Assembly (NCBI GenBank): GCA_052168235.1
Contig: JBQLZK010000019.1
Span: 1-64,000, forward strand
DNA length: 64,000 bases
Direction of reading: 5' to 3'
From: Thainema sp.
GTDB lineage: Bacteria; Cyanobacteriota; Cyanobacteriia; Phormidesmidales; Phormidesmidaceae
Shown: positions 31,686 to 61,831 of the stretch, one piece after another
Layout of the letters: every line of letters begins with the position of its first letter
Numbering within the stretch: position 1 is the first letter of the stretch
Translations under genes and position numbers: made by a program
Notes under the pieces: model-generated
Told to the model about the DNA's origin: nothing
The model's database searches: none
Seen by the model: only the letters and a program-made list of their open reading frames with translations

Positions 31686-32762
31686 ATGTTGCGATCGCAC
31701 TCTCCTCTCAAAATTGGTCAGCACGTTGCTCGCTATCCCATTGTGCAGGGTGCAATGGCGGTGCGGGTTTCTGGTGCTAATTTGGCAGGAGCCGTTGCCA
31801 ATGCCGGAGGCGTTGGGGTTATCTCAACGCTGGGTTTAGGGCTAACTTCGCCCCACTTTAATCAGTCCCGCCGGGGCAACTTTTTCGAGGCTAATCAGCT
31901 CGCGCTAATCGACGAACTGCAAAAAGCGCGCACCATTAGTCCCGACGGCATCATTGGAGTTAACATCCTAGTTGCAACCCGCAACTACGCCACCCTAGCG
32001 GAAACTGCCGCTGCCAACGGAGCCAATCTGATCATCACCGCCGCAGGTCTGCCGCTCCAGTTACCTGCTTATACTGCCAACTACCCAGAGGTAGCGCTGA
32101 TGCCAATGGTCTGCGGTCTGCCTGCTGTGCAAACCCTTTGCCAAACCTGGCAGCAGCAGTATGGTCGGTTGCCCGATGCGTTTATTGTCGAAAACTCCAA
32201 AGCAGTCGGTGGCCATGTAGGCAGCACCTGCGACAATTACAGCAGCCAAATTGAAACGCTGCTGCCCAGCATTCAGCATTATCTCCACCATCACCTGCGC
32301 GTCGATATTCCGCTGATTGCTACAGGCGGCATCTGGAATCAAGCCGATGTGGAGCGGATGCTAGCGCTCGGAGCCAGTGGCGTACAGGTGGGTACTCGTT
32401 TCATTACCACTGAAGAGTGCGATGCGGATGATCGCTACAAAGAATTTCATCTCCAATCCACTCCGGCGGATGTCGTCATGGTGCCAAGCCCAGTGGGTAA
32501 GCCAGCGCGGGTTCTCCGCAATGCGTTTGCCGAGAAAGCAATGGCGGCATCTGTCGGCATTAAGCGCCGCTGTGTTGCCAACTGTCTCGAAAGCTGTCTC
32601 TGCCGCGATCAGCGCCAAACCTACTGCATGTTACAAGCACTCGCCAATGCCGCCAAGGGCGATATTGAAAATGGACTGCTCTTTTCGGGAGCGAATGTGG
32701 GACGAGCCGAACAAATTGTGCCAGTTGCTGAAGTGATGGCAGATTTAGTTAACGTTAGCTGA
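31686..32762 (+). CDS. Nitronate monooxygenase/FabK-like flavoprotein (FabX/UfaA-like), paralog 2
   Basis: PIVQGAM, VGGHVG, GVQVGTRF, CVANCLESC...YCM; clearly paralogous to 19203-20306. Confidence 0.85.
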   Translation: MLRSHSPLKIGQHVARYPIVQGAMAVRVSGANLAGAVANAGGVGVISTLGLGLTSPHFNQSRRGNFFEANQLALIDELQKARTISPDGIIGVNILVATRNYATLAETAAANGANLIITAAGLPLQLPAYTANYPEVALMPMVCGLPAVQTLCQTWQQQYGRLPDAFIVENSKAVGGHVGSTCDNYSSQIETLLPSIQHYLHHHLRVDIPLIATGGIWNQADVERMLALGASGVQVGTRFITTEECDADDRYKEFHLQSTPADVVMVPSPVGKPARVLRNAFAEKAMAASVGIKRRCVANCLESCLCRDQRQTYCMLQALANAAKGDIENGLLFSGANVGRAEQIVPVAEVMADLVNVS

Positions 32763-39899: not shown

Positions 39900-41051
39900 C
39901 TATCCTCGGGTGATTGTTGAAAAATTATCAAACCATCCCCGTCGCCAGAAGAAATAGACCATGCCTACAGCAATGCCAATCATGACGATCCAAACGGCTG
40001 GATAGCCCCAATACCAGTTCAGTTCCGGCATATTGAAAGGGGAAGCATCGGGATTAAAGTTCATGCCGTAAATACCCGCCACAAACGTCAGCGGAATAAA
40101 AATTGTTGAAATTACCGTCAAGGTTTTCATCACCTCGTTCATTTTGTTGCTGACCGACGAGAGATAGACATCCATCAAGCTGGATGCTAGTTCACGATAG
40201 GTTTCCAGCATGTCCAATGCTTGCACCACATGTTCATAACAGTCGCGCAGGTAAACTTTTACAGCGGGACTAACCAGAGTACAGTCATCTCGCAGCAGGG
40301 CAGAGATGGCTTCTCGCTGCGGCCAGATCGATCGTCGCAGCGACAGCAGCTCTCGCTTCAGTTGATGAATTTCAGTCAGCGTCTTGTTAGTCGGTGCGCT
40401 GGTAACTTCTGCTTCTAGGTCTTCAATTCGTTCACCGTAGGATTCCAATACTGGAAAGATGCCGTCCACAATTGCATCAATTAAGGCATACAGCAGATAG
40501 TCAGCTTGGCGCTGTCGGATAATTCCTTTATTCAGCCGAATGCGATCGCGGATAGGTTCGAAGCAGTCATACTGAGGTTCTTCCTGCACCGTAAGCAGAT
40601 AGTTAGAGCCGAGAACAAAGCTCACCTGCTCATTCAAAAAGCAAGGCTGGTCAGGTATCATCATCACCATGTGCAGCACCGTAACTAGCTGATCCCTGTA
40701 GTCCTCGGATTTTGGACGCTGCGGTACGTTAACAACATCTTCTAGAACGACAGGATGTAAACTAAAAACCTGCCCAATCCGCCGCCAAGTATCTTCTTGG
40801 CCCAGACCATCAATGTTGATCCAGGAAACCGATTCCGTATCTAAGTGAGCAGCACAGTCTTCGGGATCTGCGATCGCTAATCGGATGGCGTTATCCAAGT
40901 TATAGTCAATTAAAACAATCTTCGGTGGGCTAGCACCCGCTTTAATTTGCAACGTACCGGGCATACTACCCGGCTGGTCGTAGGTATAGTCAACGTAGCT
41001 GCGCTTTGCCGGACTAATGCGCCGATAAATTTTTCTGCCCAAATTAGCCAT
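39900..41051 (-). CDS. corA: Magnesium/cobalt transporter CorA
   Basis: QRPK, YGMNF signature, MPEL. Confidence 0.95.
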   Translation of the reverse strand: MANLGRKIYRRISPAKRSYVDYTYDQPGSMPGTLQIKAGASPPKIVLIDYNLDNAIRLAIADPEDCAAHLDTESVSWINIDGLGQEDTWRRIGQVFSLHPVVLEDVVNVPQRPKSEDYRDQLVTVLHMVMMIPDQPCFLNEQVSFVLGSNYLLTVQEEPQYDCFEPIRDRIRLNKGIIRQRQADYLLYALIDAIVDGIFPVLESYGERIEDLEAEVTSAPTNKTLTEIHQLKRELLSLRRSIWPQREAISALLRDDCTLVSPAVKVYLRDCYEHVVQALDMLETYRELASSLMDVYLSSVSNKMNEVMKTLTVISTIFIPLTFVAGIYGMNFNPDASPFNMPELNWYWGYPAVWIVMIGIAVGMVYFFWRRGWFDNFSTITRG

Positions 41052-41451
41052 ATATGTTCTCCGTAATTGCGTTCTCCGGGGTTGCTGATCTGATCATCTT
41101 GCACGTTGTCTCAGAGCGCCATATTGTGTAGCAACAAGCAGCCACAATATAGCGCTCTGGGTTGACGCACAGCTGGAGAAGCACTAATCCAACCATTCCA
41201 CAGCGTAGTGATTGCCCACTTGATTGCCGATCAGGAGTGGCAGCCTGTGGTGAAGATGGACGGGGAACATTGTCTCGACCGGGGAAGCTCTGTGATTCAG
41301 CAGATGATGGAACAAATCCCCTTACTAGTTAAAGCCGGTAGTCTTTGGCCGATGACAGAGGACAATTGGCCGACCCTACATGTCTACCCACAACCGTTCA
41401 AGCAGCAGAATTCAGAGGCAACCTGCCAAGTGTATCCAACGGCTACAGAGC

Positions 41452-42228
41452 CTAGCTCACGGCCCGCATCCGCTTTACGTTCCCGCCTATTATGCCTACT
41501 GCAACCAAACCCAAAATAGCGGCAGGTTCAGGCACATCTTCGGTGACAATGCTCAATCTATTGATGCCCAAAGCAGCCTGTGGCACAGAAGAATATAAAA
41601 CCAGCTTGGCAATATCGGCTTGATCGCTACGAACACCAAAGAACGCGGCAGAGTTATCAAGATCAAGGGAAGATGTGCCAGGGGTTTCGAATGAGGCGAT
41701 TAGGTTCCCCAATGGATCGAACGCTTCGATAAAACCCGTAAAGGTAAACGCATCATCCACAGCTAATTGAGTGCCTGCACCAAAAACAGGCGTATCGAAT
41801 AGGATAGTCAACGGCCCCGGATTGCCAATCGCCGGAAAAACAGGACTCGGATCAAACCCGGTAAATAGAATAAAATCCCCTGGGGCAAAATTAGTCGGAA
41901 TACCGCTCGGAATGGGATTCGTCACAAATACAAATGGTGGCGTAATACTGGCCGTGCTGGGCTGAGGAATATCAACATTAATGCCTAATCCATTCTCTGA
42001 TGTAGCGGCAAAACTACTCGGCAAAAAGGCAGTGGGATCGGGCGCAAATGGATTGAACACTTTGCCCAGACTGGCCCAATCAACCTGATCGTTGCCACCC
42101 AAAGCTGAGCGTTCGGTGATAAAAGTAGCCGCATCTGCTGGAAGAGAAGCTGTTAATAGAGCCGTACAAGCGGCCCCGGTGACTAAAAAGATTTTAGAAA
42201 TGCGATCGCAACATTGTTTATTTAACAT
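41452..42228 (-). CDS. PEP-CTERM sorting-domain protein
   Basis: Signal peptide; C-terminal VPEP + TM + basic tail. Confidence 0.85.
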   Translation of the reverse strand: MLNKQCCDRISKIFLVTGAACTALLTASLPADAATFITERSALGGNDQVDWASLGKVFNPFAPDPTAFLPSSFAATSENGLGINVDIPQPSTASITPPFVFVTNPIPSGIPTNFAPGDFILFTGFDPSPVFPAIGNPGPLTILFDTPVFGAGTQLAVDDAFTFTGFIEAFDPLGNLIASFETPGTSSLDLDNSAAFFGVRSDQADIAKLVLYSSVPQAALGINRLSIVTEDVPEPAAILGLVAVGIIGGNVKRMRAVS

Positions 42229-42396
42229 TTGAATATAGGTTTAATAAAGATTCGTTTTTCAAATTGTTTGCACCCAAATATATAAGGTCACACTACCTAA
42301 GACGAGCAGGCCATAATCAGAGTTTTCACAAACTGTAAGTAAATATTCTTATCCCGTTCGCTCAGCACTTATAGTGATTCCAGTTAAGAGTGAGAA

Positions 42397-42443
42397 AACG
42401 AAAGAGCAGAGTGCCTCATCCTAAGGCACTCTGCTCTTTCGTT
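42397..42443. terminator. Terminator hairpin after the CocE gene
   Basis: AACGAAAGAGCAGAGTGCCT...AGGCACTCTGCTCTTTCGTT. Confidence 0.65.
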
Positions 42444-42465
42444 CTTATCTAGAACCGCTATAGCA

Positions 42466-44241
42466 CTAATTTGCAGACTTAGGAATAATCGGTAATACCA
42501 CATAAGAAGGGCTAACTGCCGTGTGGTGAACCGTCTGAGTGGCGGAAACGGGATTGGCTTCAGTGGGAATGTACCGTCCCGTATTGGGATTGCGATCGAA
42601 ACGGGGATAGCTGCTGCTGGAGACTTCTAAGCGGATTTGATGACCTTGGAAGAAGACCTGACTAGTCGGCCAAAGATTAATCGTGATTTTTGTGGGTTGA
42701 TCGCTATTTTGAGGATAATTGCGGCGTAAGATGCCCTCAGAAACGTTATAAGCACTGCCGTCAGGATACACATCAACCAGCTTAGCCGTGAAGTCGGTAT
42801 TCGGTGCTGTGGTTGAAACTTGCAGGGTAAGCTGCACTGGCCCTGTGACTTCGACATCCTGCTCCAGCGGTGGTGTCGTGTAAACTAAAACGTCATCGCG
42901 CGCTTCCACTGCATTTTGCGGTTGAATCCCCGCGTTTGGCCCCAACATGGCACCCCCTGCGCTGGGCACTGGGTTATTGGGATCATAGACAAAGCGATCG
43001 CTAGATTCATCTTTAACAGGAAGCTCTAGGCTGAGGCTACCGTCTCCATTAAGCGTATTGGCCTGCCCGTTACTGTGCAGATAGTACCGAGTGTATTCCG
43101 TGCGAGCCAGCGGCCATTCCGTTTCATCACGCCAGGTATTTAAACCCATCACGTAAATGCGAACAGGTGCAGGATAAGCGGTTTGAGGCGAGTCTTTCAG
43201 ATGCTGCTCAAACCAGGGCAAGCTAGAACCAATGCTTTCGAGCCGATAGTTGCGGGGTTCAGTGCCGTCTGGAAACGTGACGGTATTGGCATGAACCCAA
43301 GGGCCGATAATCAGACGAGATGCTTGTGCCACTTCTGATTCAGCATTAGCCTGAATCTGCTGAAAGTCAGCAATCTGGGTGGGCAAAAACGGATCGTACC
43401 AGCCCGCCATTAAAAGTGCTGGAGCCTTCAGCTCATCGGCTTCTATCCGATCTACCGACCGCCAATAATTACTCGCTTCGGTTTCGCTCGCCCAGGTATT
43501 GAAAAATGAAATATCGCGTACGGCCCGATCATCTGCCTCCAGCAGCGGCCAGCCCTGATATCCTTGCTGTAGCTGCTCTTGAGGTAGGGGGATATCCTGC
43601 TTGCCGTAGCTGAGCGTCGCCCAATACAGCGCACTTTCCAGCGAAAACGCGCCACCGGGATAAAACATGCGGTAAAAGTCGGTGCTGCAAATTTGTAGAA
43701 TCAGCGCCGACAGCCCCGGATCAACCTGATCGGCCAAGATCCACTGGGTATAGCCAAAATAGGAACCGCCCCACATGCCAATTTTGCCGTTATACCAGGA
43801 CTGCTGAGCAATCCAATCCAGCGTTGCTAAACCATCCTGAGTTTCGTTCAAGAACGGTGGATCATAGCTGCCGCCCGATTCATAGCGCCCGCGCGTGCCC
43901 TGAATGACGGTCGTATAGCCATGACTGGCCCAGAGATGACCAATCGTGCGGGCAAATAGAACGTGCTTGATTTTCTTTGAGTAGGGAATTCGCACCAAAA
44001 TTGTCGGCGTTGGTTCAGTCGTGCGGGGATGGTAGATATCGGCCACTAGCGCTGTATTATCAGGCGCTTTCACGGTTACATGTCGCTCTAACCGTACACC
44101 GTAGATAGCGGGTTCATAGCCGAGTTGACGCCCAAGCCAGAAAACTGCGATCGCACTTCCATTTGCTATAACTAAAACAACGATGCAGGTCAGTACTGCC
44201 AGCACCAGCCACAGCCATTGTTTACGTAGGAAACGAATCAT
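42466..44241 (-). CDS. CocE/NonD family (S15) hydrolase with N-terminal TM anchor
   Basis: RGRYESGG, GGSYFG nucleophile, GWYD, GPWVH, SSSSYPRFDRNPNTG; ATGA overlap with the upstream gene. Confidence 0.9.
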   Translation of the reverse strand: MIRFLRKQWLWLVLAVLTCIVVLVIANGSAIAVFWLGRQLGYEPAIYGVRLERHVTVKAPDNTALVADIYHPRTTEPTPTILVRIPYSKKIKHVLFARTIGHLWASHGYTTVIQGTRGRYESGGSYDPPFLNETQDGLATLDWIAQQSWYNGKIGMWGGSYFGYTQWILADQVDPGLSALILQICSTDFYRMFYPGGAFSLESALYWATLSYGKQDIPLPQEQLQQGYQGWPLLEADDRAVRDISFFNTWASETEASNYWRSVDRIEADELKAPALLMAGWYDPFLPTQIADFQQIQANAESEVAQASRLIIGPWVHANTVTFPDGTEPRNYRLESIGSSLPWFEQHLKDSPQTAYPAPVRIYVMGLNTWRDETEWPLARTEYTRYYLHSNGQANTLNGDGSLSLELPVKDESSDRFVYDPNNPVPSAGGAMLGPNAGIQPQNAVEARDDVLVYTTPPLEQDVEVTGPVQLTLQVSTTAPNTDFTAKLVDVYPDGSAYNVSEGILRRNYPQNSDQPTKITINLWPTSQVFFQGHQIRLEVSSSSYPRFDRNPNTGRYIPTEANPVSATQTVHHTAVSPSYVVLPIIPKSAN

Positions 44242-44708
44242 GGCTGTCTCCGAGTACGATAACCCCAGCCCCACAGCCAAAGGTAAGTGGCAAGGACAAA
44301 GTGAAACACAATCGGGATTGTTCCTTCGCCCAGCCAGCGGCGTTCTGGATAGACGGTCATGGTGGCAACGTAGCGCACTGCCATTGCAGTCGCATATAAA
44401 TAGCTAAAGTACTGTAGCCCTTTACCAATCAGCGGTTTTGGCTGTTGAAAGAAGCCTGACTGCTGGGCAAAGTCGATATTGATTTTGATTTGCAGGCAGA
44501 GAATGATAATTTGAGTCGGTAACAAAATTGGATAAGGTAGCAAACCCGAATACCAGTGGGGCATCGGCGGCAAAAAGGGAACCTGCCAAACCACAACGAG
44601 AATTTGCCCTAGCACCCGCAGAAAAAACAGCAGCGTCAAGCCCCACAGCCAGCAGAGCGGATGGCGAGTCGGCATTAACGATGCTAGTAACTTAGCAGGA
44701 TGGGGCAT
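44238..44708 (-). CDS. Hypothetical 4-TM membrane protein
   Basis: Hydrophobic segments, WYSGLLPYP, IPIVFH; overlaps both neighbours. Confidence 0.7.
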   Translation of the reverse strand: MPHPAKLLASLMPTRHPLCWLWGLTLLFFLRVLGQILVVVWQVPFLPPMPHWYSGLLPYPILLPTQIIILCLQIKINIDFAQQSGFFQQPKPLIGKGLQYFSYLYATAMAVRYVATMTVYPERRWLGEGTIPIVFHFVLATYLWLWGWGYRTRRQP

Positions 44709-46365
44709 GGGGTATAGGATTCTTAGTCATGAGATAGGTTTGCAGGATCGCTGAAATATCCTCAGAAAGCGGCTCTGGGCATAGCACCGACCATTTGTAC
44801 TGCACATCACGTTTACCCTGAGCAATGGCCTGCCGTTTGATAGCTTCGGCCCAGCCCGGACGCATCCAGTGTAAGCAAGGTGGCTGTAACCGCTGTGAAG
44901 CCCGCTTTTGAGCATACTCAGCATTGACTTGAGCTAGAGTCTGATCGAGCACTGATAAGACCCGATCTGGATCAGTGATAGAAGCATCCTGGGTCAACTC
45001 TAGGTGAAGCTCGTAGCGCATGGCGGTGGGGTTTGCCACTAGGCGATAGGCAATGATCGCTAAGTTTAGCTGATGCTGAAGAGTTGCGATCGCAGTTAGC
45101 ACATGATTGACATGTAGCTTTTCACCCGTAAGGTTGCTCATGTCTCGTCCCTTGCGTAGGAAGGCAATCACAGGCGATTGATGGTAACGACCTGTGACTT
45201 CGACAATGTCATTGATGTGATAGCGATAGAGGCCACCGGGAGTGGTGAGTAAGATTTGATAGCGCTGACCAATTTCTAATTCATGGCTCAGCAGAATCGA
45301 TGGATCAGCTTGTTCTGCTTCGGCTTCAGGAACGAACTCATAGAAGTTGGTGTTGAGATCGAGCAAACCGCCAGCCGTATTATCCTGATAGGGAATCGTT
45401 ACTCGCGCTTCGCTGGCCAAGTAGCCCAAATCGCGAGTCGGTAACGCACCATAATCAGCGGTTAGCTGCCGAGCTTGCGCCCCCACAGAGCCACCCGTCC
45501 AGCAGCCAAGCAGTTGCAGATGTGGCCAACAATCTTTTGGTTTGAGTCCACCTGTTGCGTCAACAATTCGTTCAAGCTGTCGTGCCCGCTGAGGATTCGC
45601 TACGAGGTTGAACTGGGTTGCAGCAGGCAGACATTCGCCCATCGTACCGTCATGAATAGCGCGAATCAGCGACTCGCTGTGCTGACTCATGACCCGCGCT
45701 AAGCGGTTCAGCGTGCTGGGATTGGGCGTACAGAGAAATGAAACGACCCTGGCTAGGGCAAACCGAGCAATGGCCCAGTAGCGAGCGTCGTAATCTGTAA
45801 TCTCGAACACTTCGTAGGGCACAGCATAGTGACGACGAATCAGCGGCGGAATCTGCTGATAGATGCGGCCAGACAAGCTACCGTAGGGAATGCCGCCGTC
45901 CGTATAGCCTTCAACCGCAGGACTAACAACACCAACGATGCCGCCGTTCAAAAAACGAGGGTAGTTGCGCCAAATTCGGTAGAGCCACTGACGCATCAGG
46001 GCTGAGCCGCTTTGCTCGACACTGGGCGTGACGGGGATGTATTTGGCCTGCCCCGTCGTGCCGCTAGTCATCGTGAACATGCCTACAGATTCGCGCACCA
46101 GAATATCTGGCTCACCTGCCATCATCTGCTGCACATAGGGCCGAAAGCCTTCGTAGTCTCGAATCGGGACGGCCTGCCGATAGTCAGCCGGAGTACGAAT
46201 TTGATCAAACCGATGCTCCCGACCAAACCGGGTTTTCGCATGTCGCTGGAGTAGCTGCCGCAACACCTGCTGCTGTGCGATCGCAGGATACTGAGTCGCC
46301 TTTTCCAACTGCTGCATCAGCGGATAGCCTTGCCAACGCAGCGCAGTCGTCATCAACCAGGACAT
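44692..46365 (-). CDS. GH3-family acyl-adenylate/amide ligase
   Basis: TSGTTGQAKYIP P-loop, YLASE, FYEF, GGLYRYHINDIV, GEKL; RBS GGAGG before MSWLM. Confidence 0.88.
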   Translation of the reverse strand: MSWLMTTALRWQGYPLMQQLEKATQYPAIAQQQVLRQLLQRHAKTRFGREHRFDQIRTPADYRQAVPIRDYEGFRPYVQQMMAGEPDILVRESVGMFTMTSGTTGQAKYIPVTPSVEQSGSALMRQWLYRIWRNYPRFLNGGIVGVVSPAVEGYTDGGIPYGSLSGRIYQQIPPLIRRHYAVPYEVFEITDYDARYWAIARFALARVVSFLCTPNPSTLNRLARVMSQHSESLIRAIHDGTMGECLPAATQFNLVANPQRARQLERIVDATGGLKPKDCWPHLQLLGCWTGGSVGAQARQLTADYGALPTRDLGYLASEARVTIPYQDNTAGGLLDLNTNFYEFVPEAEAEQADPSILLSHELEIGQRYQILLTTPGGLYRYHINDIVEVTGRYHQSPVIAFLRKGRDMSNLTGEKLHVNHVLTAIATLQHQLNLAIIAYRLVANPTAMRYELHLELTQDASITDPDRVLSVLDQTLAQVNAEYAQKRASQRLQPPCLHWMRPGWAEAIKRQAIAQGKRDVQYKWSVLCPEPLSEDISAILQTYLMTKNPIPHAPSC

Positions 46366-46379
46366 CAGCTCAACCTCCC

Positions 46380-47555
46380 TCACACTGCGGGAACGGACAG
46401 CGCAGTTGGTAGAGAAATAATCTGGTGAGCATATTTCTCTAGCAGCGCGTCCTGAATTTCGACTCCTAATCCTGCACCCCGTAATCCTTTCGCTAATCCC
46501 CGATGCCCAAAGTGAATTGGTTGGCGGCTGATATCCTGACTCAGCAGCAGCGAACCGTATGATCCCTCTGTGAACACAACGTCCGGTAAGTACGCTGATA
46601 AGAATCGTCCAGCGGCTGAAAGAATGGCTGTTTCGCCCACCTGGCAGCCAACCTGAATTTTTATGCCATTCGCCTGAGCCAAATCTGCGATCGCAATTGT
46701 CTGAGCCAGCCCGCCACACTTAGACAGCCGCAGATTAAAAAACTGACAGGCTTTAGCATCGATTAACGCCTGAGCATCAGCCAAAGTAATCAGCGATTCA
46801 TCAGCCATCTGGGGAATAGGAGACTCAGCCTGTACGATTGCCAGTTCTGCCACATCGCCACGGGCAATCATCTGTTCAGCGCTATCGATGGCGTATTGCG
46901 CTAGGGTTTGGCAAGTTGCGATCGCAGTTTCGACGGTATAAGCTCCATTGCCGTCAATTCGCAGCGAAACATCCGGCCCAACCACGTCACGAATGGCCGC
47001 AATCCGATCCTGATCGGCTTCACCTGTCACTTTGACCTTGATATGAGGTAGGCCAAACTGCTTGTATCGCTTAGCATGTTTAACGGCACCTTCAACACTG
47101 CTGGCGGTAATCACACCGCTGTAGGTTACGGTTGACCGCTGAGGCGGTAAAAGCTCTGCCAGAGATACGCCCTGACTCTTGAGCAAACAGTCTACTAAAG
47201 CTAGCTCAAACCCGCAGCAAGCTGCATTCCAGGCAACTACAGTATCAGTTGCACCAGTTGGTAACGTGGCGGCAATTTGATTCAACCAGTCGAATGCTTT
47301 TTCGCCTGACCACGGGGCATAATCTGTCTTTCGTACCGCAGGCCAGAGTGCCCCAACCATGTAGCGTAAACAAGTCTCAACCGTCTCTCCTGTCACATAG
47401 GGACGCGCCACAGCTTCACCGTAGCCAACTGTTCCGTCGTCAGCCTGCAAACAGACTACGATTGAGTCGGAATAGGTGCGCGACTTGATGCTGTGGGCAA
47501 AGGCTTCCACAAACGGGATTCGCAAGGCAAACAGGGTGGCTTCAACGATTTGCAT
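46380..47555 (-). CDS. Enolase superfamily (MLE/dipeptide epimerase subgroup) enzyme
   Basis: GYGE, KVK, DGN, EQ, ADES, NLRLSKCGG, GCQVGET. Confidence 0.85.
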   Translation of the reverse strand: MQIVEATLFALRIPFVEAFAHSIKSRTYSDSIVVCLQADDGTVGYGEAVARPYVTGETVETCLRYMVGALWPAVRKTDYAPWSGEKAFDWLNQIAATLPTGATDTVVAWNAACCGFELALVDCLLKSQGVSLAELLPPQRSTVTYSGVITASSVEGAVKHAKRYKQFGLPHIKVKVTGEADQDRIAAIRDVVGPDVSLRIDGNGAYTVETAIATCQTLAQYAIDSAEQMIARGDVAELAIVQAESPIPQMADESLITLADAQALIDAKACQFFNLRLSKCGGLAQTIAIADLAQANGIKIQVGCQVGETAILSAAGRFLSAYLPDVVFTEGSYGSLLLSQDISRQPIHFGHRGLAKGLRGAGLGVEIQDALLEKYAHQIISLPTALSVPAV

Positions 47556-47611
47556 AGTGACCTTACATGGTGAGACATGGCTGTATGAAGGATCTCGGAG
47601 GTTGATTTTTC

Positions 47612-47687
47612 GTAGGTTGGGTTGAGCAACGCGAAACCCAACGTTTTCGGAGCTTGTTGGGTTGAGTGATAACGAAACCCAACCTAC
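47612..47687. repeat. GTAG-type REP element
   Basis: GTAGGTTGGGTTGAGCAACGCGAAACCCAAC...AACCCAACCTAC; inverted relative to 21078-21154. Confidence 0.78.
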
Positions 47688-47691
47688 AAAA

Positions 47692-48402
47692 TTAGAGCAT
47701 GTGTGTTGCTTGGGCTAGAGCGAGTTCACCAAAGTAATGCTTAATAAAGACATTCTCGCGGAAGGTAATATCTAGAATCGTTTCTAGCTCATCGGCTTCA
47801 AATTCGTAGTAATCAACATACTGCTCGACGCTGTCCAGCCCTTCTTCGGCGTGGCGAATGTCTACTTCCGAATGGTGATAGAACCAGGCTAAACTCTCGG
47901 AATCCAATTTTCGATGGCGTTCTAGAGCTGTACCAAGGCGACTAGCGAGCCGCGACAGCATCCACTCAAAGCAAGTTACTTCCAGCAGCACTGAAAGACC
48001 CAATTCGCGAATCGTGCCAAACAGTAGCGGGTCAGTACAAAGCGTGTAAATCTCAGCCTGAGCGGCTTGAGCTAGCTCAGCTTGTTTTGCAGCATCAAAT
48101 CCAGCGGCCTTTGCGAGCTGATGTAGCAAATCGGGATGACAAATTTCTGCCTCATCCAGACCCATCTCTTCCATCAGATTGTGCTTAATTTGCGGCGCAG
48201 CAGCAGGCGGCGCAACCGAGTAGAGAAAGGCTAGAATCTGCGGGCTTTTCAGGTGAGTCTGACAAAGTCTAAACAAAAACTCATCGTATGCCGCGCGGGA
48301 TGCCTGCCCCTGTTCAATCTGCTGAAACAGGCTCGACTGCTCAAATGCCTCAACCTGCTGGGCATACTGGTTTTCAATCAGTTGACGAACGGCCAGAGTC
48401 AT
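47692..48402 (-). CDS. Haem-oxygenase-like diiron oxidase (HDO; CADD/PqqC-like)
   Basis: NLMEEMG...H, FEW, HHSEVDIRH (H-x3-D-x2-H) ligand set. Confidence 0.8.
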   Translation of the reverse strand: MTLAVRQLIENQYAQQVEAFEQSSLFQQIEQGQASRAAYDEFLFRLCQTHLKSPQILAFLYSVAPPAAAPQIKHNLMEEMGLDEAEICHPDLLHQLAKAAGFDAAKQAELAQAAQAEIYTLCTDPLLFGTIRELGLSVLLEVTCFEWMLSRLASRLGTALERHRKLDSESLAWFYHHSEVDIRHAEEGLDSVEQYVDYYEFEADELETILDITFRENVFIKHYFGELALAQATHML

Positions 48403-48559
48403 GAGGAAGGCTCCACTAAGATTGGATCAACCGTGTATCAACCAGATACTATCCGGTCATCTTGCGGTATTTGAGCCTAGACTGCCCACTTTGCCAACTG
48501 AACTATCACGGAACCTCTTCGATGAGGTCAACGTAATAAATACCAAGAAGAACGGATGC

Positions 48560-48718
48560 CTAATGCAGAAAGTGGGCAAGCAGCTGATCAACGAGATAAT
48601 CCGAGGCGATTCTCACTCCCATAACCGCTAGGACAATCATCAGAATGTCAACTTTGCTGAGGCGACGAGGGCGATTAGGACGTTGTGCTCCATTCAGAGG
48701 AAACCTCCGGTTAGGCAA
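48560..48718 (-). CDS. Putative small membrane protein (about 52 aa, below the ORF-track cutoff)
   Basis: Translates as MPNRRFPLNGAQRPNRPRRLSKVDILMIVLAVMGVRIASDYLVDQLLAHFLH: basic N-terminus and hydrophobic helix. Confidence 0.4.
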   Translation of the reverse strand: MPNRRFPLNGAQRPNRPRRLSKVDILMIVLAVMGVRIASDYLVDQLLAHFLH

Positions 48719-48960
48719 GGTAAAGATTGACGAGCGCTTTACTTGCTCAGTTATTCATCGGCTAACTCCAACAAACTCATAACGAACCCGAGCCAAATAA
48801 ATCATAATCATAATGACTACGACTTAGCAACCTATTTTTTAGTTCTCAGAGGACTGCAAAGGCTAAAAGGGCTGTGAGGCTGTATTTGAAATGTGGCCTC
48901 AGTCAGGCTTAATATTTCTTTATAATTAGTATTAATCGTTTATTGGATAAGGAAAAAACC

Positions 48961-49740
48961 GTGCTGAAGAGATTGGGTTTAATCGCAGCGGTCGTATTTG
49001 CCGTTGTGATTGCAACCGTAGCTAGAGCAGATATTGCCAGTCAGTCCGTCGTCTATCAAATCAACGGACAGCCTTACGAAGGTTACTTCGTCCGCAATAC
49101 CGGATTTGGTGATTCGCAGCCCGTTGTTATGCTGATTCACGACTGGAATGGCATTGATGATTACGAAAAGCGGCGGGCACAAATGTTAGCTGAGCAGGGC
49201 TATGCAGCTTTCGCTGTGGATCTCTATGGTCAGGGCAATCGCCCCTCAACCACAGAAGAGTCGCAAGCAGCTAGCCAAGCGCTTTACGAGGATCGCGAAG
49301 CCATGCGATCGCGCTTATTTGCCGGACTGGAACAGGCTCAAATGATGCCCGGTGTTGATCCAGAGCGAGTCGTGGCAATTGGCTACTGCTTTGGCGGTGC
49401 GGCAGCACTAGAATTTGCCCGCGCTGGGGCTGACTTGGATGGCTTTGTCTCCTTCCACGGTGGCCTAGCTACACCAGAAGGCCAAGACTACAGTCAAGCG
49501 ACTGGGCCAATTTTGATTCTGCACGGTGCCGATGATCCAGTTGCTCCCATGTCCGACGTGGCGGCACTCGCCACTCAGCTCAATGAAGCGAGTGTGGACT
49601 ACAGCATGGAGCTTTATGGTGGCGTGAAGCACTCGTTTACTGTATGGGGCGCGAACCGTGAAACGTCTCAGTATGACGCTCAAGCCGATATTAAATCCTG
49701 GGATGCGCTGATGAAGTTTTTGGATGAGCAAGTGAGCTAG
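48961..49740 (+). CDS. Dienelactone hydrolase family protein (exported)
   Basis: Signal peptide, HDWNG, GYCFGG, HGADD, HSFT. Confidence 0.9.
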   Translation: MLKRLGLIAAVVFAVVIATVARADIASQSVVYQINGQPYEGYFVRNTGFGDSQPVVMLIHDWNGIDDYEKRRAQMLAEQGYAAFAVDLYGQGNRPSTTEESQAASQALYEDREAMRSRLFAGLEQAQMMPGVDPERVVAIGYCFGGAAALEFARAGADLDGFVSFHGGLATPEGQDYSQATGPILILHGADDPVAPMSDVAALATQLNEASVDYSMELYGGVKHSFTVWGANRETSQYDAQADIKSWDALMKFLDEQVS

Positions 49741-49764
49741 TCGTTCACAGAACACAGATAGATT

Positions 49765-49800
49765 AAGAGGGACGCGCTGGGTGCGTCCCTCTTGCTTTTT
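49765..49800 (+). terminator. Rho-independent terminator
   Basis: AAGAGGGACGC...GCGTCCCTCTT followed by a T-tract. Confidence 0.7.
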
Positions 49801-49865
49801 GTCTGTTTAAGTTAAGCGCGAGTCTTGCTAGCATTAACGCAACGTTGCCAGAAACGTGCGATCGC

Positions 49866-50101
49866 ATGTTTCACAGTACCTGTTTGCTCGACGGTTGCAG
49901 CCGACAGAGTGTGTCATCGCCGTTGGAGGGCAATGGCTCTGAGGAACAGCCGCTTCATCCGGAGAGCAAATAGCTCATCGCCTGCATCGATGGCATACTG
50001 ACAATCGCACAGTTGATGAGCCAGACACACTTGCCACTCGTTGGCCGGATGAGTCGTCTGGGCACTGAACAGTCGGAAACTCACACCTGAGGCCAATGAC
50101 C
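49866..50101 (-). pseudogene. IS66-family transposase relic
   Basis: GHWPQV*VSD/LFSAQ...WQVCLAHQLCDCQYAIDAGD...MKRLFLRA, with stops and a frameshift. Confidence 0.7.
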
Positions 50102-50124
50102 GCTTTTTAAGAAATGCAATTCTG

Positions 50125-52788
50125 CTACCAGCTTGCGGAATAGAGCAAGCGAATGGTGCGACCGCGACCCCCAATGTAGTTGCGATCGTCAAAGCCAGAG
50201 AGAAACTGCGAGATCACTGGGAAGTACTGGTTATCAAAGAGATTTTCCACGCCGACTTGTAAGGTGCCAGGGCCGATATCAACGCTGCTAATGAAATCAA
50301 CGACAACGTAGTCTTCAATGGTCACGGGATCGACTCCGGCATCAAATGCGCGATCGCGCCCGCCGACAAACAGCGCTTGCAATCGGTTCCGCCATCCGGG
50401 TAGGGTTTCATTTTCCACATAGGCCGTTAGCTTCAAAGGCTGAATTTCGCCGCTGTTGAGCGCGATGTAGTCACCATCTTCATCGACATCGTTTTCGCCT
50501 TCAATCCAGCTCAAAATACCGCCAACGCCCCAGCGGTCAGTTGGTTGCCAGTCTAAGGTGGCTTCCAGACCGTAAACTCGCTGCGGAGCACGGACTAGAC
50601 CCAGCAGCCCGTTCTCATTGGGAACCAAGCTAGCCCCGAGGGATGAGGTATTGAAAAAGCCGCTCAGGCTCGCCTGCACGGTGGGCCAATCACCCCGGAC
50701 ACCGAGTTCGTATTCGGTCACTTTAATCGGTTCCGTCACCTCTAGATCATCCTCGACGCTAACGAATCCCGGTGGTGGTAGGCGGAAGATACGGCTAAAT
50801 TCCGGCACGCTAAAGCTTTGGGCAACGCCACCGAAGAATGAGATGTTATCGGTAGGACTGTAGACAGCACCAACGTCGAACACCAGGTCATCAAAGGAGC
50901 GATTGCCACCTTCAACGGGCTGTTGTCGAGTCACCGAGACATAGTCATCAATACTCAAGCTAATATTTTCATAGCGTAGTCCGCCCCGCAGCAGCCATTC
51001 TGAGCTAGCTTCCCACTCTAAGCGGGCAAACAGTCCGAGACTGTCGAGCGTGTAGGGTGGCGTAAAGTTAAACTCCTGCACTTCAGCCAGTCGCCGCTCG
51101 GCATCAAAAATATCGCCATCGAACTGGGCGGTAATTTGCTGATTCTCCTGATTCTCGTAATCTGCTCCCCACAATAGGTTGAGCGTTTCTGATGACGTCA
51201 GGGGGGTTTCAATCTGTAATCGACCTCCCCAGCGCTCAGCATCTAAGCGGGACTGGAACAAAAACGGGAAAAATTCACCCCCCAATCGACCGTCGGCGAA
51301 TTCACCACGGGCAACAGCATCTTGGTAATAGATCTGTCCCTGTAAGCGGCTCCCGAACAGGTCTTCATTGGTGTAGCTGAGATTGAGCACCAAGTTGCGA
51401 TCGCTGGGATTATCTTCGCGCTCTAGTCCTTCGATTTCCAATGCACGGGCAATTTGGCGGCCCGGAATGAGCAGCGTTCTGGGGTCGGCAACAAAGTCTG
51501 TTTCGCGCTCCGAGTCAAAGTAGTTGACGGTAAAGTCAAGTCGCTGTGAGTCGGTCAGGTCATAACCCAGCTTGCCCAAGATGTTGTAAGAGGTGGTGTC
51601 GCTCAAACTCGCTTCGGAAACAATTCGGTTTCCTGCCGCATCGAAAAAGCTACCTGTGTATTCGCGAGAGGCGCTTAGCCGATAATCAAACTGATTGGCT
51701 CGACCGGAAATGGCAGCGGACAGGACGTTGCCAAAGCCGTCGTCTTCCAGTTCACCCACGGAGCCACTGACGCCCACTTGTGTTTCTAGCGTCACGGGCT
51801 GGTTTTCTGGGCGGCGGGTGATGATGTTAATTACCCCACCCGTACTTTGTCCGCCGAAAATGGCGCTTGGCCCTCGCACCACCTCAATCCGCTCAATCGC
51901 CGATGGGTCAATACTGCGTAGCTCCTGGCGATTCACGCGGAAGTTCGTTACCAGCGGTACACCGTCAATCAGGACAGCAGGCTCGCGTCCACGCAGCGTC
52001 TGTCCGCGCGTGGTACGAAGCTGGTTGGGCGGGCCAAAGCCCGGCACCAAGGTGCCCAGAATGTCGGCCAGATCACGCGAGAGCACCGACTGCTGCTCCA
52101 GTTCTTCACGGGTAATCACCGTCACGGAACGGCCCAGATCCTCTTCTTCTTCCTCCGTGCGGGTGGCGGTGACAACGATACGGATGGGCGCGGCTTCGGT
52201 GGTTTCAGGGGATTCAGGAGCTACAGGTATTTCAGCGGGATCAGGGGTTGGGTCGATGGTTGATGGTGGGTCGGTGGTGTCGGGTTGCGTGGGATCGGCT
52301 GGAGATTCGGGAGTAAATTCAATGTCTGGGGGAGGTGTAGTGGAGGGATCAGGCGCGGGTTCAGATGGTTCTTGGGCGATTGGTTCTGGGGCGCTGACTT
52401 GCAGTACCAGTGCTTGCGATCGCGAAATAACACTGGCTGTGGGCACGGCTGCCTGTCCAGTAATAGTAATCCGGATGCTGTTGGCATCTAAGGATGTGAC
52501 CTGCAGTGTTTCAACGCCAGCGACGGGATTCTGCTGCTGGAATGACGGCCCATCAGGAAGCTGAAGCTGAGCATTGATGACATCGACAATCAGGGTTTCA
52601 CCGTACTGGCTGGTGAACGCCTGAAGCGATTGCTCAGAAGGCGTTTCCAATACAAGATCAAATCCTTCAGCAGTTGGATTGAGCTGAATATCGGTCACTG
52701 CAATCGGATTCGCTTGAGCCGATTGGGCACTGATTAGGGCAACGGCCCCGGCTGTCCACACCGAGTAAGCCCAGAAAGACTGTTTCAC
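50125..52788 (-). CDS. TonB-dependent siderophore receptor with AMIN domain
   Basis: Signal peptide, AMIN domain, Pro-rich linker, IVVTATRT, LIDGVP, IERIEVVRG, GGVINIIT, ENLFD, terminal W. Confidence 0.92.
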   Translation of the reverse strand: MKQSFWAYSVWTAGAVALISAQSAQANPIAVTDIQLNPTAEGFDLVLETPSEQSLQAFTSQYGETLIVDVINAQLQLPDGPSFQQQNPVAGVETLQVTSLDANSIRITITGQAAVPTASVISRSQALVLQVSAPEPIAQEPSEPAPDPSTTPPPDIEFTPESPADPTQPDTTDPPSTIDPTPDPAEIPVAPESPETTEAAPIRIVVTATRTEEEEEDLGRSVTVITREELEQQSVLSRDLADILGTLVPGFGPPNQLRTTRGQTLRGREPAVLIDGVPLVTNFRVNRQELRSIDPSAIERIEVVRGPSAIFGGQSTGGVINIITRRPENQPVTLETQVGVSGSVGELEDDGFGNVLSAAISGRANQFDYRLSASREYTGSFFDAAGNRIVSEASLSDTTSYNILGKLGYDLTDSQRLDFTVNYFDSERETDFVADPRTLLIPGRQIARALEIEGLEREDNPSDRNLVLNLSYTNEDLFGSRLQGQIYYQDAVARGEFADGRLGGEFFPFLFQSRLDAERWGGRLQIETPLTSSETLNLLWGADYENQENQQITAQFDGDIFDAERRLAEVQEFNFTPPYTLDSLGLFARLEWEASSEWLLRGGLRYENISLSIDDYVSVTRQQPVEGGNRSFDDLVFDVGAVYSPTDNISFFGGVAQSFSVPEFSRIFRLPPPGFVSVEDDLEVTEPIKVTEYELGVRGDWPTVQASLSGFFNTSSLGASLVPNENGLLGLVRAPQRVYGLEATLDWQPTDRWGVGGILSWIEGENDVDEDGDYIALNSGEIQPLKLTAYVENETLPGWRNRLQALFVGGRDRAFDAGVDPVTIEDYVVVDFISSVDIGPGTLQVGVENLFDNQYFPVISQFLSGFDDRNYIGGRGRTIRLLYSASW

Positions 52789-52990
52789 GTCAATTCCTCA
52801 CACATAGAACAAGAGTTATCGCAGTGCGTCAGACGGCTGACAGCATTGAGTACGTTTGATTGCATCAGCTATCTGACTCGCCATTGCCGCCAAGTCTGTA
52901 GCAATGACGGTTGGGCAGGCCAATGCAGCTAGACCACGCATAAATGACCTAGCCACGAAGATTGGTAATTTGGTAACGAAGATCAAATTT

Positions 52991-53010
52991 AATGAGAATA
53001 CTTCTTAATT
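52991..53010. promoter_or_regulatory. Fur-like box upstream of the TonB receptor
   Basis: TGAGAAT-A-CTTCTTA 7-1-7 arrangement. Confidence 0.55.
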
Positions 53011-53378
53011 ATTTGATGGGGCATTGGCCGTCTTGTCAAGTCCCCTGTCAGAAATCCCTGTCGTCTTTCAAATCGTTGATCCAAGCTGCCTAGGCGATGC
53101 ATTAGCAGCACTCGTGAGTTAATCGATTTTGGCTGAGATCTTGGCTGGGATTTTGGCTGAGCTATTTGATTTTGCTGAGCTATTTACTCGAAATCCCTTC
53201 TGCATCAGCACTGAAGCCAATTTATCGTACAGTTTGATAAACGCTCCTGACAGATTAGCGGTTTGCTCAACCTCTTGCATAACCCAAGTGTCTCAAGCGC
53301 GTCCTGATTAAACTTTCAACGGACGATATTAGCGATAAGATTCAACCTTGCCAAACAGGAAAAGATTGCGTATTCTTG

Positions 53379-53395
53379 TTGAGAATTCTTATCAA
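53379..53395. promoter_or_regulatory. Fur-like box upstream of FAAL
   Basis: TGAGAAT-T-CTTATCA 7-1-7 arrangement, just before the ATG. Confidence 0.6.
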
Positions 53396-53399
53396 GCAA

Positions 53400-55187
53400 A
53401 TGGCCTCTACCTTCAGTTCTTTGACTGCCCATCGTGCTGACATGACATGGGTAGATATCTTGCGCGATCGCAACGACCAGCAATCGGATCAAGTTGCCTT
53501 TCAGTTTTGGGAAACAGGTGAGTCGCTCACTGCAAGTTTGACCTATGGGGCACTCGATCAGCGTAGTCGGGCGGTCGCAGCTCAGCTCCAGGCCCGTCAG
53601 CTCCAGCATGAGCGGGTGCTGATTCTTTGTCAACCAGGGCTGGACTACATTGTGGCGTTCTGTGCCTGCCTCTATGCAGGTGCGATCGCAGTGCCCATTT
53701 ATCCGCCTCGACCGAATCAGCTACTGGAGCGACTGCAAGCAATTGCGGCAGACGCTCAGCCGGCTATGTTACTGACCACACAGGCATTTAACACTCAGAT
53801 CAAGCAGCTTGATTCAGATTCAGAGTTGAATTCGTTTATTCGGACTCTGCCGTGCTTGGTGGTCGATCAAATTGATGGGCAGGATGCAGGGGACTGGCAA
53901 GCACCTGAGATCCAGGCCGATACGATTGCGCTGTTGCAGTATACCTCTGGCTCCACCGCGTCACCCAAGGGTGTGCAGGTGAGCCACGGGAATTTGCTGC
54001 ATAATGCGGCTGCGATTCGCCAGCGGTTCGAGCTGACGCCTGCAAGTTCTGCTGTGATTTGGCTGCCGCCGTATCACGATATGGGTCTGATTGGTGGCAT
54101 CCTACAGCCCATCTATGCCGGGTTTCCCGTGACGTTGATGCCGCCGGTGGCGTTTTTGCAGCGGCCTTTGCGATGGCTACAGGCAATTGCTCAAACCCGA
54201 GCGACGGTTAGCGGTGCGCCGAATTTTGCCTATGATCTCTGTGTGCAGCGCAGCACGCCGGAACAGCGAGCTAGTCTCGACTTAAGCCACTGGACTTTGG
54301 CCTTTACTGGTGCTGAACCAATTCGGGCTGATACCCTAGATCGATTCGCTACTGCCTTTGCTGACTGTGGTTTTCGGCGAAATGCGTTTTATCCCTGCTA
54401 CGGCATGGCTGAAGCGACGTTGATGGTCACAGGCGGGTTGCGATCTCACCTTCCCAAAACGATTTCCGTCTGCGGCGATCGGCTTGAACAGCACCATGTT
54501 CAGGTCACTGATCCCACTGCTCCAGACTGCCGCGTACTGGTGGGCTGTGGCTCTCCCATTGCCGATAGCCAAGTCGTTATCGTTAATCCAGACACGCGGA
54601 TACGCTGTCAACCCAATGAAATTGGCGAAATTTGGGTGGCCAGTCCCAGCGTGGCGCACGGATACTGGAATCGTCCCCAGCAAACCCTAGAAACCTTCCA
54701 TGTTTATCTGGCTGATACGAGCGAGGGACCATTTTTACGGACGGGTGATCTGGGCTGGATGGAGGACGGTGAGCTGGTTGTGACGGGACGGTTGAAGGAA
54801 GTCATGGTGATTCGCGGTCGCAATCACTATGCTAGCGATTTGGAGAAAACGGTGGTGGCGAGCCATCCAGCGCTAGGGGCAAGCTGGGGGGCCGCATTTA
54901 CGATTGAACAGGCTGGAGCAACTCATCTCGTCATTGTCCAAGAAGTGACGCGCACATGGATTCGGCAACTGCAGCCCCAGAAAGTGATTACAGCCATTCG
55001 GCAGCGCATTGCCCAGGTTCACGGTTTGCAGGTCGATACGGTGGTTTTGGTCAAGCCCAGCAGTCTGCCGAAAACGTCGAGCGGCAAGATTCAGCGGCAT
55101 CGCTGTCGATCCCAATTCTTAGCCAATCAATTACAAAGCATTGCCGAAGATCGCCGTGCTCTGGCTAATCATCAACAGTCCGATTAA
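53400..55187 (+). CDS. Fatty acyl-AMP ligase (FAAL)
   Basis: LQYTSGSTASPKG, WLPPYHDMGLIG, YGMAE, RTGDLG, GRNHY, PKTSSGK. Confidence 0.92.
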   Translation: MASTFSSLTAHRADMTWVDILRDRNDQQSDQVAFQFWETGESLTASLTYGALDQRSRAVAAQLQARQLQHERVLILCQPGLDYIVAFCACLYAGAIAVPIYPPRPNQLLERLQAIAADAQPAMLLTTQAFNTQIKQLDSDSELNSFIRTLPCLVVDQIDGQDAGDWQAPEIQADTIALLQYTSGSTASPKGVQVSHGNLLHNAAAIRQRFELTPASSAVIWLPPYHDMGLIGGILQPIYAGFPVTLMPPVAFLQRPLRWLQAIAQTRATVSGAPNFAYDLCVQRSTPEQRASLDLSHWTLAFTGAEPIRADTLDRFATAFADCGFRRNAFYPCYGMAEATLMVTGGLRSHLPKTISVCGDRLEQHHVQVTDPTAPDCRVLVGCGSPIADSQVVIVNPDTRIRCQPNEIGEIWVASPSVAHGYWNRPQQTLETFHVYLADTSEGPFLRTGDLGWMEDGELVVTGRLKEVMVIRGRNHYASDLEKTVVASHPALGASWGAAFTIEQAGATHLVIVQEVTRTWIRQLQPQKVITAIRQRIAQVHGLQVDTVVLVKPSSLPKTSSGKIQRHRCRSQFLANQLQSIAEDRRALANHQQSD

Positions 55188-55220
55188 ACCCGCTAACTTA
55201 TATGACTGGAATCTTGAATT

Positions 55221-55511
55221 ATGAATCAGCCCTTCGATGCGATCGCAGCTTACTCCGCTCATCAAAATCATATTCAGCCTTCAGCCGAAGCCATTGAGCT
55301 ATGGATGATTGAGCGCTTGGCCAATCTTTTCCAAACGGATATCAATAACATTGATCCGGAGGTGCCGTTTGATGACTACGGGCTGGATTCCGCTGCGGCA
55401 GTTGGTTTAACCGGAGAACTGGAGGAGTGGCTACAGCGCTCTGTCTCGCCAACTTTACTGTATGACTACCCCACGATTGCTGGATTAGCTGATTACTTGG
55501 CACATTCCTAG
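55221..55511 (+). CDS. Stand-alone acyl carrier protein
   Basis: YGLDSAAA phosphopantetheine site, YDYPTI. Confidence 0.9.
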   Translation: MNQPFDAIAAYSAHQNHIQPSAEAIELWMIERLANLFQTDINNIDPEVPFDDYGLDSAAAVGLTGELEEWLQRSVSPTLLYDYPTIAGLADYLAHS

Positions 55512-55576
55512 CATCAGGCTTTCGCCGATATGACTCATCAATCCCATTAACCGCAACCACATTAGAGGAATTGGGC

Positions 55577-61813: not shown

Positions 61814-61831
61814 ATCAAGTCGAATATATAC

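Follow-up and report, generated by a model that had tools for sequence, protein, structure and literature searches.

A conserved three-gene bacterial cassette that sets an HDO-type oxidase and an enolase-superfamily enzyme beside a GH3 ligase

Introduction

Bacterial GH3 enzymes are largely uncharacterized, as a preliminary description of the DNA studied here rightly held in general terms, albeit with one exception that it did not make: OlsH, the sole bacterial GH3 activity found in our literature searches, forms an amide from a free acid in an ATP-dependent step of the ornithine-lipid pathway, according to the accessible part of its report (PMC12493201). In the current study, we analyzed 64,000 nucleotides of the cyanobacterium Thainema sp. 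(assembly GCA_052168235.1, contig JBQLZK010000019.1, positions 1 to 64,000; hereafter the window), in which a GH3 gene stands in an operon with genes for a heme-oxygenase-like dimetal oxidase (HDO), an enolase-superfamily protein, a membrane protein and a CocE-type hydrolase. The operon is a real, intact copy of a conserved three-gene bacterial cassette, HDO-enolase-GH3. We propose, with a probability of roughly 0.6, that GH3 builds an acyl-amide, probably an N-acyl amino acid, which an HDO-enolase complex tailors by oxidation followed by elimination or isomerization. Gene content, linkage, residues and fusions are observed here, the complex is modelled, and we infer the chemistry and the substrate class.

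The enolase-superfamily protein belongs to the subgroup named after muconate lactonizing enzyme (MLE). As set out in the accessible parts of two sources (10.1101/2022.03.03.481873, PMC8142540), racemases and epimerases of this subgroup use lysines on strands 2 and 6; in MLE and o-succinylbenzoate synthase (OSBS) the strand-6 lysine only stabilizes the intermediate, and enzymes of the subgroup can also catalyze eliminations. A basic residue three positions after the strand-6 lysine has been proposed there as a racemase indicator, although MLEs have one too (10.1101/2022.03.03.481873).

Results

The cassette and its distribution

The five open reading frames, all intact and all on the minus strand, are listed below with the two noncoding features that bear on them.

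47692-48402, minus strand: HDO, 236 aa; PF14518, E 2.5e-17; core gene
46380-47555, minus strand: enolase-superfamily protein of the MLE subgroup, 391 aa; PF13378, E 5e-41; core gene
44692-46368, minus strand: GH3 adenylating ligase, 558 aa; PF03321/PF23571/PF23572; core gene
44238-44708, minus strand: four-helix membrane protein, 156 aa; no Pfam or NCBIfam match; accessory
42466-44241, minus strand: CocE/NonD serine hydrolase, 591 aa; TIGR00976; accessory
42441-42399, minus strand: intrinsic-terminator-like hairpin, a 20-bp stem then a T-run, 25 bp past the CocE stop
47608-47691, no strand assigned: palindromic dispersed repeat in two tandem copies, between HDO and enolase

Open reading frames, Pfam and NCBIfam matches, spacing and the hairpin bear out the preliminary description in its five co-oriented genes, its family labels, the coupling of the last four genes and the terminator. 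It had drawn the operon out to 48718; the HDO gene in fact starts at 48402, its frame is open for 244 codons only, and 48403-48718 is noncoding DNA upstream.

Scanning species genomes for the GH3 yielded 30 loci. The order HDO-enolase-GH3 was found in 25 of 27 cyanobacterial-type loci, the other two ending at contig ends, while three Omnitrophota GH3s (37%) were adjoined by neither HDO nor enolase, and no enolase was found in the small genomes that carry them. To avoid circularity, the recount was restricted to loci found through the enolase (112 loci, cut to 100 by dereplication at 95%, with 82 at ≥40% identity), one of the searches that fed it supplying the best 80 of 582 confirmed stretches. 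Among the dereplicated loci, GH3 adjoins the enolase in 68 of 69 with room downstream and HDO does so in 56 of 66 with room upstream; co-occurrence elsewhere, on which the preliminary description had made its proposal depend, was thus found. All five genes stand together in only 13 of 50 loci, so that the membrane protein and CocE are accessory and the core is HDO-enolase-GH3, not the five-gene pathway originally envisaged; the gene order exceeds chance expectation. The idea of a conserved small-molecule gene set that is independent of nonribosomal peptide synthetases (NRPSs) and lacks a described pathway gains support from this co-occurrence and from literature searches, which, with most subscription journals outside their reach, returned no description of an HDO-enolase-GH3 gene set.

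The distribution is patchy. The enolase is carried by 12 of 120 genomes of the organism's own family and by 10 of 401 of its phylum; HDO likewise occurs in 10 of these 401, nine of them common to both, so that the HDO is hardly ever met apart from the enolase. The cassette was also found in 10 of 251 genomes of the phylum of an Omnitrophota genome, G519. Source names of the homologues include Binatia, Rokubacteria, Terriglobales and Omnitrophota, and the named cyanobacterial carriers are Leptolyngbya sp. PCC 6406, Nodosilinea and Halomicronema. In one locus (L078:563-1435) an MpaB/rubber-oxygenase-family gene occupies the HDO's place upstream of the enolase. The Thainema genome itself has three other GH3-family loci (C5:111620-113362, C8:32412-34295 and C51:15422-16191, the last apparently in pieces), none of them beside an enolase of this family.

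Fusion and predicted binding of HDO and enolase

The HDO model (pLDDT 93.9) has a heme-oxygenase-like helical fold, and its top Foldseek matches are to CADD, at 20-22% identity. None of the six putative ligands of an Fe/Fe or Fe/Mn center (E79, H89, E146, H177, D181 and H184) varies among the 43 homologues (43 of 43), and the six align with the acidic and His positions of CADD in a Glu/His/His plus Glu/Asp/His pattern. The positions of CADD Tyr27 and Lys152, which we take to be sacrificial residues, hold neither Tyr nor Lys in the window HDO, the register being somewhat uncertain at this level of identity.

Fusions and modelling make it probable that HDO and enolase function together in a complex. 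By their precomputed Pfam domains, 21 of 23 longer HDO homologues are HDO-enolase fusions; four proteins were re-scanned. When the two window proteins were cofolded, they gave an ipSAE of 0.74 (runs of 0.80, 0.74 and 0.70) versus 0.00 in three controls, with at least 80% of contacts shared between runs and a partner pLDDT of at least 89; the mark applied to ipSAE is reached by 116 of 157 solved complexes and by 2 of 215 mismatches, rates that are only rough for these alignments. The prediction speaks for binding but is no demonstration of it. The modelled interface involves enolase residues 16 to 18, beside the conserved F19 and H21, and the invariant R215 of the HDO. Of 91 HDO-adjacent enolases, counted without dereplication, 90 have the interface residue E17, whereas no basal HDO-less row (of 7) and no outgroup row (of 17) has it. 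All HDO-linked enolase rows fall into a single 79-row clade (SH-aLRT 99) of a quick, midpoint-rooted tree of 107 rows. In our literature searches, no report was found of an HDO that is fused with an enolase-superfamily enzyme or that binds one.

An enolase family with an altered catalytic residue

The window enolase lies below the cut-off of all 16 NCBIfam families that it matched, among them MenC (30.1 versus 259 bits) and the muconate cycloisomerase TIGR02534 (129.5 versus 334.95 bits). A housekeeping MenC identity was rejected, the true MenC of the genome being on contig C3 (419 bits). By PDB sequence search, the best matches of the window enolase are 2P88, an N-succinyl amino acid racemase, and 3JVA; the closest solved relatives are labelled dipeptide epimerases.

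Residues were counted in the best 150 representatives at 50% clustering. The metal ligands are kept almost throughout (D201 in 149, E227 and D252 in 150), as is K175 (147); K173 and E330 are also conserved, and the KxK motif is present. The second catalytic lysine, on the sixth strand in the NxKxxKCGG motif, is replaced by Arg276 in the window protein and by Arg in 140 of the 150. Such a replacement would favor one-base chemistry, and thus elimination or isomerization rather than racemization. H21, R26, R51, Y53, E57, Y145, E308 and E330 are conserved across the family, a pattern suggestive of a single isofunctional family whose pocket accommodates another polar or anionic group. The active site is identical whether or not an HDO is present.

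The GH3 ligase

The N-terminal, central and C-terminal GH3 domains score 219.4, 75.8 and 51.6 bits against a Pfam cut-off of 23.6. The motifs TSGTT (T101-T105), YLASE (S319-E320) and GLYRYxxxD (G379-Y383) are conserved at ≥95% in 80 sequences, and these three nucleotide-binding motifs match those of OlsH and of plant GH3s, including the essential serine of OlsH (S115). On the OlsH equivalog NF052613 the window protein scores 116.2 bits versus a cut-off of 620, and a single-query search placed Hydrolase_4 (OlsI-type) proteins next to none of the 94 ingroup loci defined below. From its sequence, the GH3 is predicted to act like OlsH but is not OlsH, and the cassette lies outside the OlsH pathway.

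Accessory genes past GH3

An enolase match was present in 138 of the 142 loci of the full set, of which 112 remained after dereplication and 94 at ≥40% identity (the ingroup). Past GH3, the 63 loci with room hold the membrane gene in 27, an ICMT-type methyltransferase in 8, an LCM-type one in 5 and none of these in 23; no locus has two, so that methyltransferases total 13 of 63. This mutual exclusion has a Fisher p of 0.0003, with the reservation that kin are not independent and that one query stood for each family. The alternatives switch in several clades of the tree. The membrane gene occurs in 9 of the 12 enolase carriers and in none of the 108 other genomes of the family (120 genomes); it was also not found in five genomes with core-only loci, in a search made without a positive control. 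The membrane protein is accessory but dedicated to the cassette.

Its invariant polar residues (21 of 21 sequences) are R31, W52, S54, Y59, Q66, Y105, R112, Y113 and H136. Searches of Pfam and NCBIfam gave no match and the ESM Atlas only nameless clusters, and the best structural hits (Foldseek E 1.4; VIA Z 7.1) are ordinary for helical bundles. Kinship with ICMT was considered and rejected: hhalign gave a probability of 0.3 against one ICMT neighbour, and PF04140 was not matched. The export function first assigned to this gene found no backing in a 156-aa, four-helix protein that matches no family or fold, and a role as an enzyme or in ligand binding seems at least as likely.

CocE scores 403.6 bits on TIGR00976 (cut-off 66.3) and matches cocaine esterase at E 2.8e-98, with which its Ser-Asp-His motifs GGSYFG, WYDPF and GPWVH (158, 281 and 313) align. 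It is present in 17 of 61 loci, 16 of which also have the membrane gene. Residues 10-28 are hydrophobic, and 7 of 9 homologues inspected have an N-terminal hydrophobic segment; a membrane anchor is plausible, the other reading of this segment being a cleaved signal peptide.

Relatives outside the HDO clade

Basal ingroup loci are devoid of the HDO. They carry a 450-aa protein without a known family (in 7 loci) and a Hyg5/FkbO-like protein (in 4), the latter matching 5AG3 at E 2e-7 and scoring 52 versus a cut-off of 325 bits. Searches of Pfam and the PDB with the 450-aa protein gave no useful match; its gene shuffles around the enolase-GH3 pair, in many cases together with that of the Hyg5/FkbO-like protein (L062:4891-6258, L083:5832-7145, L092:6581-7954, L073:338-1666 and L159:10176-11486). 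The notion that these two proteins together replace the HDO was weakened by locus L159, which has HDO, Hyg5-like and 450-aa proteins together. An acyltransferase-transporter, a lipid-type neighbour, is also found at L159.

The 18 loci at <40% identity include no HDO (0 of 17), a Hydrolase_4 neighbour in 11 of 18 and an adjacent GH3 in 5 of 15. Hydrolase_4-enolase fusions exist (P0274 and P0286; 683-685 aa); an enolase-alignment search of longer proteins, confined to those of 801-2285 aa, found none. These Hydrolase_4 neighbours and fusions, together with a fatty-acid-synthesis context, are the reason for thinking the acyl group lipid-like, although they belong to distant relatives and not to the HDO clade.

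The Omnitrophota cluster L166:268-10519 encodes, besides GH3 and the enolase, an acyl carrier protein (ACP), an ACP synthase, FabA and two ketosynthases, along with two hydrolases, a methyltransferase and DUF1571. An OleD-like reductase, a hydrolase with a Cys nucleophile, enolase and GH3 are found in the Omnitrophota loci L161:5534-12721, L162:4030-12078 and L164:2095-8188; L161 additionally has nitroreductase, methyltransferase and isopropylmalate-synthase-like genes, and L162 two GH3s and an MFS transporter.

Operon architecture and setting

The window lies on contig C19 of a 7.5-Mb genome that is 99.99% complete, and its nearest neighbours in the tree are filamentous cyanobacteria. The window has 79 HIP1 sites and two psbA-family genes, which mark the DNA as cyanobacterial; in the operon, GC content (0.52 versus 0.50) and HIP1 density (1.0 versus 1.2 per kb) are like those of the genome, so that the operon is not obviously a recent import.

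The enolase stop is followed after 11 bp, with a GGAGG ribosome site, by the GH3 ATG; the overlap of GH3 with the membrane gene is 17 bp and that of the membrane gene with CocE is 4 bp, a common ATGA, for which reason the CocE start is most likely 44241 (591 aa) and not the TTG at 44280. The HDO-enolase gap of 136 bp owes its length to the two palindromic repeat copies in it; 43 of 46 relatives have ≤30 bp at this point, and the five genes therefore probably form one transcript. The repeat motif has 28 copies genome-wide, and many unrelated contigs match the operon only at the repeat itself (47608-47691). The region has 9 terminator-like sites versus 9.7 in shuffles, i.e., not above chance, but the hairpin downstream of CocE has the longest stem among them. 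A promoter scan was at chance level, an Rfam search of 41000-50200 gave no match, and a plasmid search gave none. A single study has three metatranscriptome runs with contigs from a relative of about 90% identity; these cover the three core genes, HDO, enolase and GH3, and neither the membrane gene nor CocE. Contigs show neither transcription nor its level, DNA may be present, and they were not used as evidence. Directly past the terminator, 41452-42228 encodes a PEP-CTERM-like protein (E 6e-4, just below cut-off) that is in no related locus.

Upstream of the operon, 50125-64000 and on to about 82890 of C19, lie genes for a fatty acyl-AMP ligase (FAAL), a hybrid polyketide synthase (PKS), NRPSs, TauD, a thioesterase, an ABC exporter, a TonB receptor with an AMIN domain and a siderophore-binding protein. 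In the accessible part of the published account, cyanochelin-type siderophore clusters comprise FAAL, PKS, NRPS, an aspartate hydroxylase and a thioesterase, and the cluster in the window resembles these.

Elsewhere in the window are two psbA-like genes 5 kb apart (22902-23999 and 28909-29991, only the second covered by the Pfam scan), the first with a translation clearly divergent from typical D1 and, by reading of the sequence, with a sulfide:quinone-reductase-like gene (21172-22485) and one for a Rieske protein (25397-25945) in its vicinity. Seven co-oriented genes at 53-9456 were labelled by eye as glycosyltransferases, a radical SAM protein and NAD-dependent epimerases, and two similar genes of the nitronate monooxygenase family lie at 19203-20306 and 31686-32762 (PF03060 confirmed for the second).

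Discussion

In the scheme that we propose, GH3 would adenylate a carboxylic acid with ATP and join it to an amine, most likely to give an N-acyl amino acid, as OlsH and the plant GH3s suggest. The HDO, complexed with the enolase, would carry out an O2-dependent oxidation of the amide or its precursor. The enolase would bind a carboxylate on Mg2+, with Lys175 taking the alpha-proton, and in the absence of the second catalytic lysine would complete an elimination or isomerization. The membrane protein and CocE would be lineage-specific additions, probably handling the carboxyl group or an ester of the product at the membrane. The single likeliest version, which we offer only tentatively, is beta-hydroxylation followed by dehydration to an N-acyl-alpha,beta-dehydroamino acid, a net alpha,beta-desaturation. 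More speculative still is a joint reading in which the complex of HDO and Arg-type enolase desaturates an unactivated amino-acid head group by oxidation and elimination and, with GH3, makes N-acyl dehydroamino acids (enamides) by a route not yet described; the HDO-less enolases would act on amino acids in which a beta leaving group is already present, the enamide would be cleaved by the Hyg5-like partner, and the membrane protein would be a new enzyme family in the role of the ICMT- or LCM-type carboxyl methyltransferases.

A number of observations weigh against the proposed scheme. The HDO is not adjacent in 10 of 66 loci, so that oxidation is not essential to the enolase-GH3 pair; genome G139 has a CocE-HDO arrangement with no enolase in the 870 bp left downstream, and locus L137 has HDO-enolase with GH3 not nearby. 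E17 persists in 2 of 3 ingroup HDO-less rows and is absent from 7 of 7 fusions, and, as the HDO-linked rows form a single clade, they amount to one event, which makes this residue weak evidence of coevolution. In the enolase, lysine is kept at 276 in 8 of the 150 representatives, and K279, the proposed second-shell racemase indicator, in 144. The HDO clade is almost devoid of lipid-metabolism neighbours, and the acyl group could therefore be a small or aromatic acid. Finally, GH3, enolase and racemase have no occurrence in the main texts of PMC7293339 and PMC7378531 or in three supplements of the former, the papers on the stieleriacines considered below.

The retained K279, together with the dipeptide epimerases among the closest solved relatives and an active site that is the same with or without HDO, would suit a pathway with the same ligase step in which the enolase is an epimerase that inverts an amino-acid center (through Lys175 and a noncanonical base) and the HDO acts independently, for example in N-oxygenation or hydroxylation. 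We consider this unlikely, given that the sixth-strand lysine needed by the racemases of the subgroup is so widely replaced by Arg and that fusions and the modelled complex bind the HDO to the enolase. Enzymes of the MLE subgroup are often catabolic, and a degradative or detoxifying cassette could be imagined in which an ester or amide from outside is cleaved by CocE and relayed by the membrane protein, GH3 activates or conjugates the acid and the HDO and MLE-like enzyme degrade it. The closeness of CocE to cocaine esterase, the GntR and sigma-54 regulators beside some loci and a divergent dienelactone-hydrolase-family gene in the window would fit such a role. Yet CocE is confined to the minority of loci noted above, the relatives have no recurring uptake system or downstream catabolic gene, the enolase misses the muconate cycloisomerase cut-off, and the methyltransferases and fatty-acid-synthesis genes of relatives point to synthesis rather than catabolism, which together leave this possibility improbable. 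A chlorocatechol-type variant employing the divergent dienelactone hydrolase was rejected, that hydrolase being in 1 of 94 loci (same genus).

We regard as equally improbable that GH3 conjugates a benzoate-type acid supplied by the HDO or a chorismatase while the enolase acts like OSBS. This is the reading to which one is drawn by CADD, a 4-aminobenzoate synthase and the HDO's nearest solved relative, by the Hyg5/FkbO-like protein that flanks 4 loci (3 without HDO) and by a plant GH3 structure labelled a 4-substituted benzoate-glutamate ligase; it is countered by the low identity to CADD and the missing equivalents of Tyr27 and Lys152, by the poor scores of the Hyg5-like proteins and the presence of one beside an HDO in L159, and by the genome's own MenC elsewhere. 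Far less likely again is a role of the operon in tailoring what the neighbouring FAAL/PKS/NRPS cluster makes, an idea raised in the preliminary description and recommended by a FAAL start only about 5 kb from the HDO gene. When co-occurrence was checked, 12 of the 120 family genomes were found to have the enolase and 6 a full-length orthologue of the PKS (7 if a partial one is counted); the single genome with both has them on different contigs (overlap 1 versus 0.6 expected; Fisher p 0.48), and such a PKS is in none of the 94 ingroup loci. The PKS cluster moreover comes with a TauD, a thioesterase, an ABC exporter, a TonB receptor and a binding protein of its own, and in the accessible part of the cyanochelin work the acylase is Ntn-type and CocE goes unmentioned. 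The operon is very probably unrelated to this siderophore-like cluster, and the two do not travel together.

Synthesis and tailoring of an acyl-amide by GH3 and an HDO-enolase complex is thus the reading we prefer. If true, the physical coupling of an HDO to an enolase-superfamily enzyme would be a new pairing. The enolase represents a large, nameless family with an altered catalytic residue, the HDO is distant from all solved members of its own family, and a three-gene, 4-kb cassette in named cyanobacterial genomes offers one target for the function of all three enzymes.

Compared with known systems, the cassette combines familiar parts in its own way. Like other HDOs (CADD, FlcD, HrmI, UndA, RohS and PqqC), the window HDO has the same fold and six putative ligands, but it is at most 22% identical to every solved member. 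Dipeptide epimerases, N-succinylamino acid racemases, OSBSs and muconate cycloisomerases share with the window enolase the KxK motif, the D/E/D ligands and a lysine at the "266" position, but the window enolase has the sixth-strand Arg and its own invariant H21, R26, R51, Y53, E57 and Y145. The plant GH3 synthetases (JAR1, GH3.12/PBS3) share fold family and motifs with the window GH3 (PDB sequence matches at E 3e-22 to 3e-15) but are of low similarity and have no enolase or HDO partner. The stieleriacines of Stieleria, which are N-acyl dehydrotyrosines, represent the compound class of our most specific mechanism; in the accessible parts of their reports (PMC7293339, PMC7378531), the proposed clusters contain NAS-type acyltransferases and the double-bond-forming step is stated to be unresolved. 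The OlsH/OlsI/OlsG system of Singulisphaera acidiphila, in which OlsH required free fatty acids, likewise has a GH3 with the three nucleotide-binding motifs and, as in distant relatives of the cassette, pairs it with an alpha/beta-hydrolase and a methyltransferase, judging from the accessible part of its report (PMC12493201), the main text of which names neither enolase nor racemase, epimerase or heme oxygenase; genes of the OlsI or OlsG type are missing from the operon described here. All of the enzyme classes are known ones, and the cassette, as we interpret it, is a variant of GH3-dependent N-acyl-amide biosynthesis distinct from that of OlsH.

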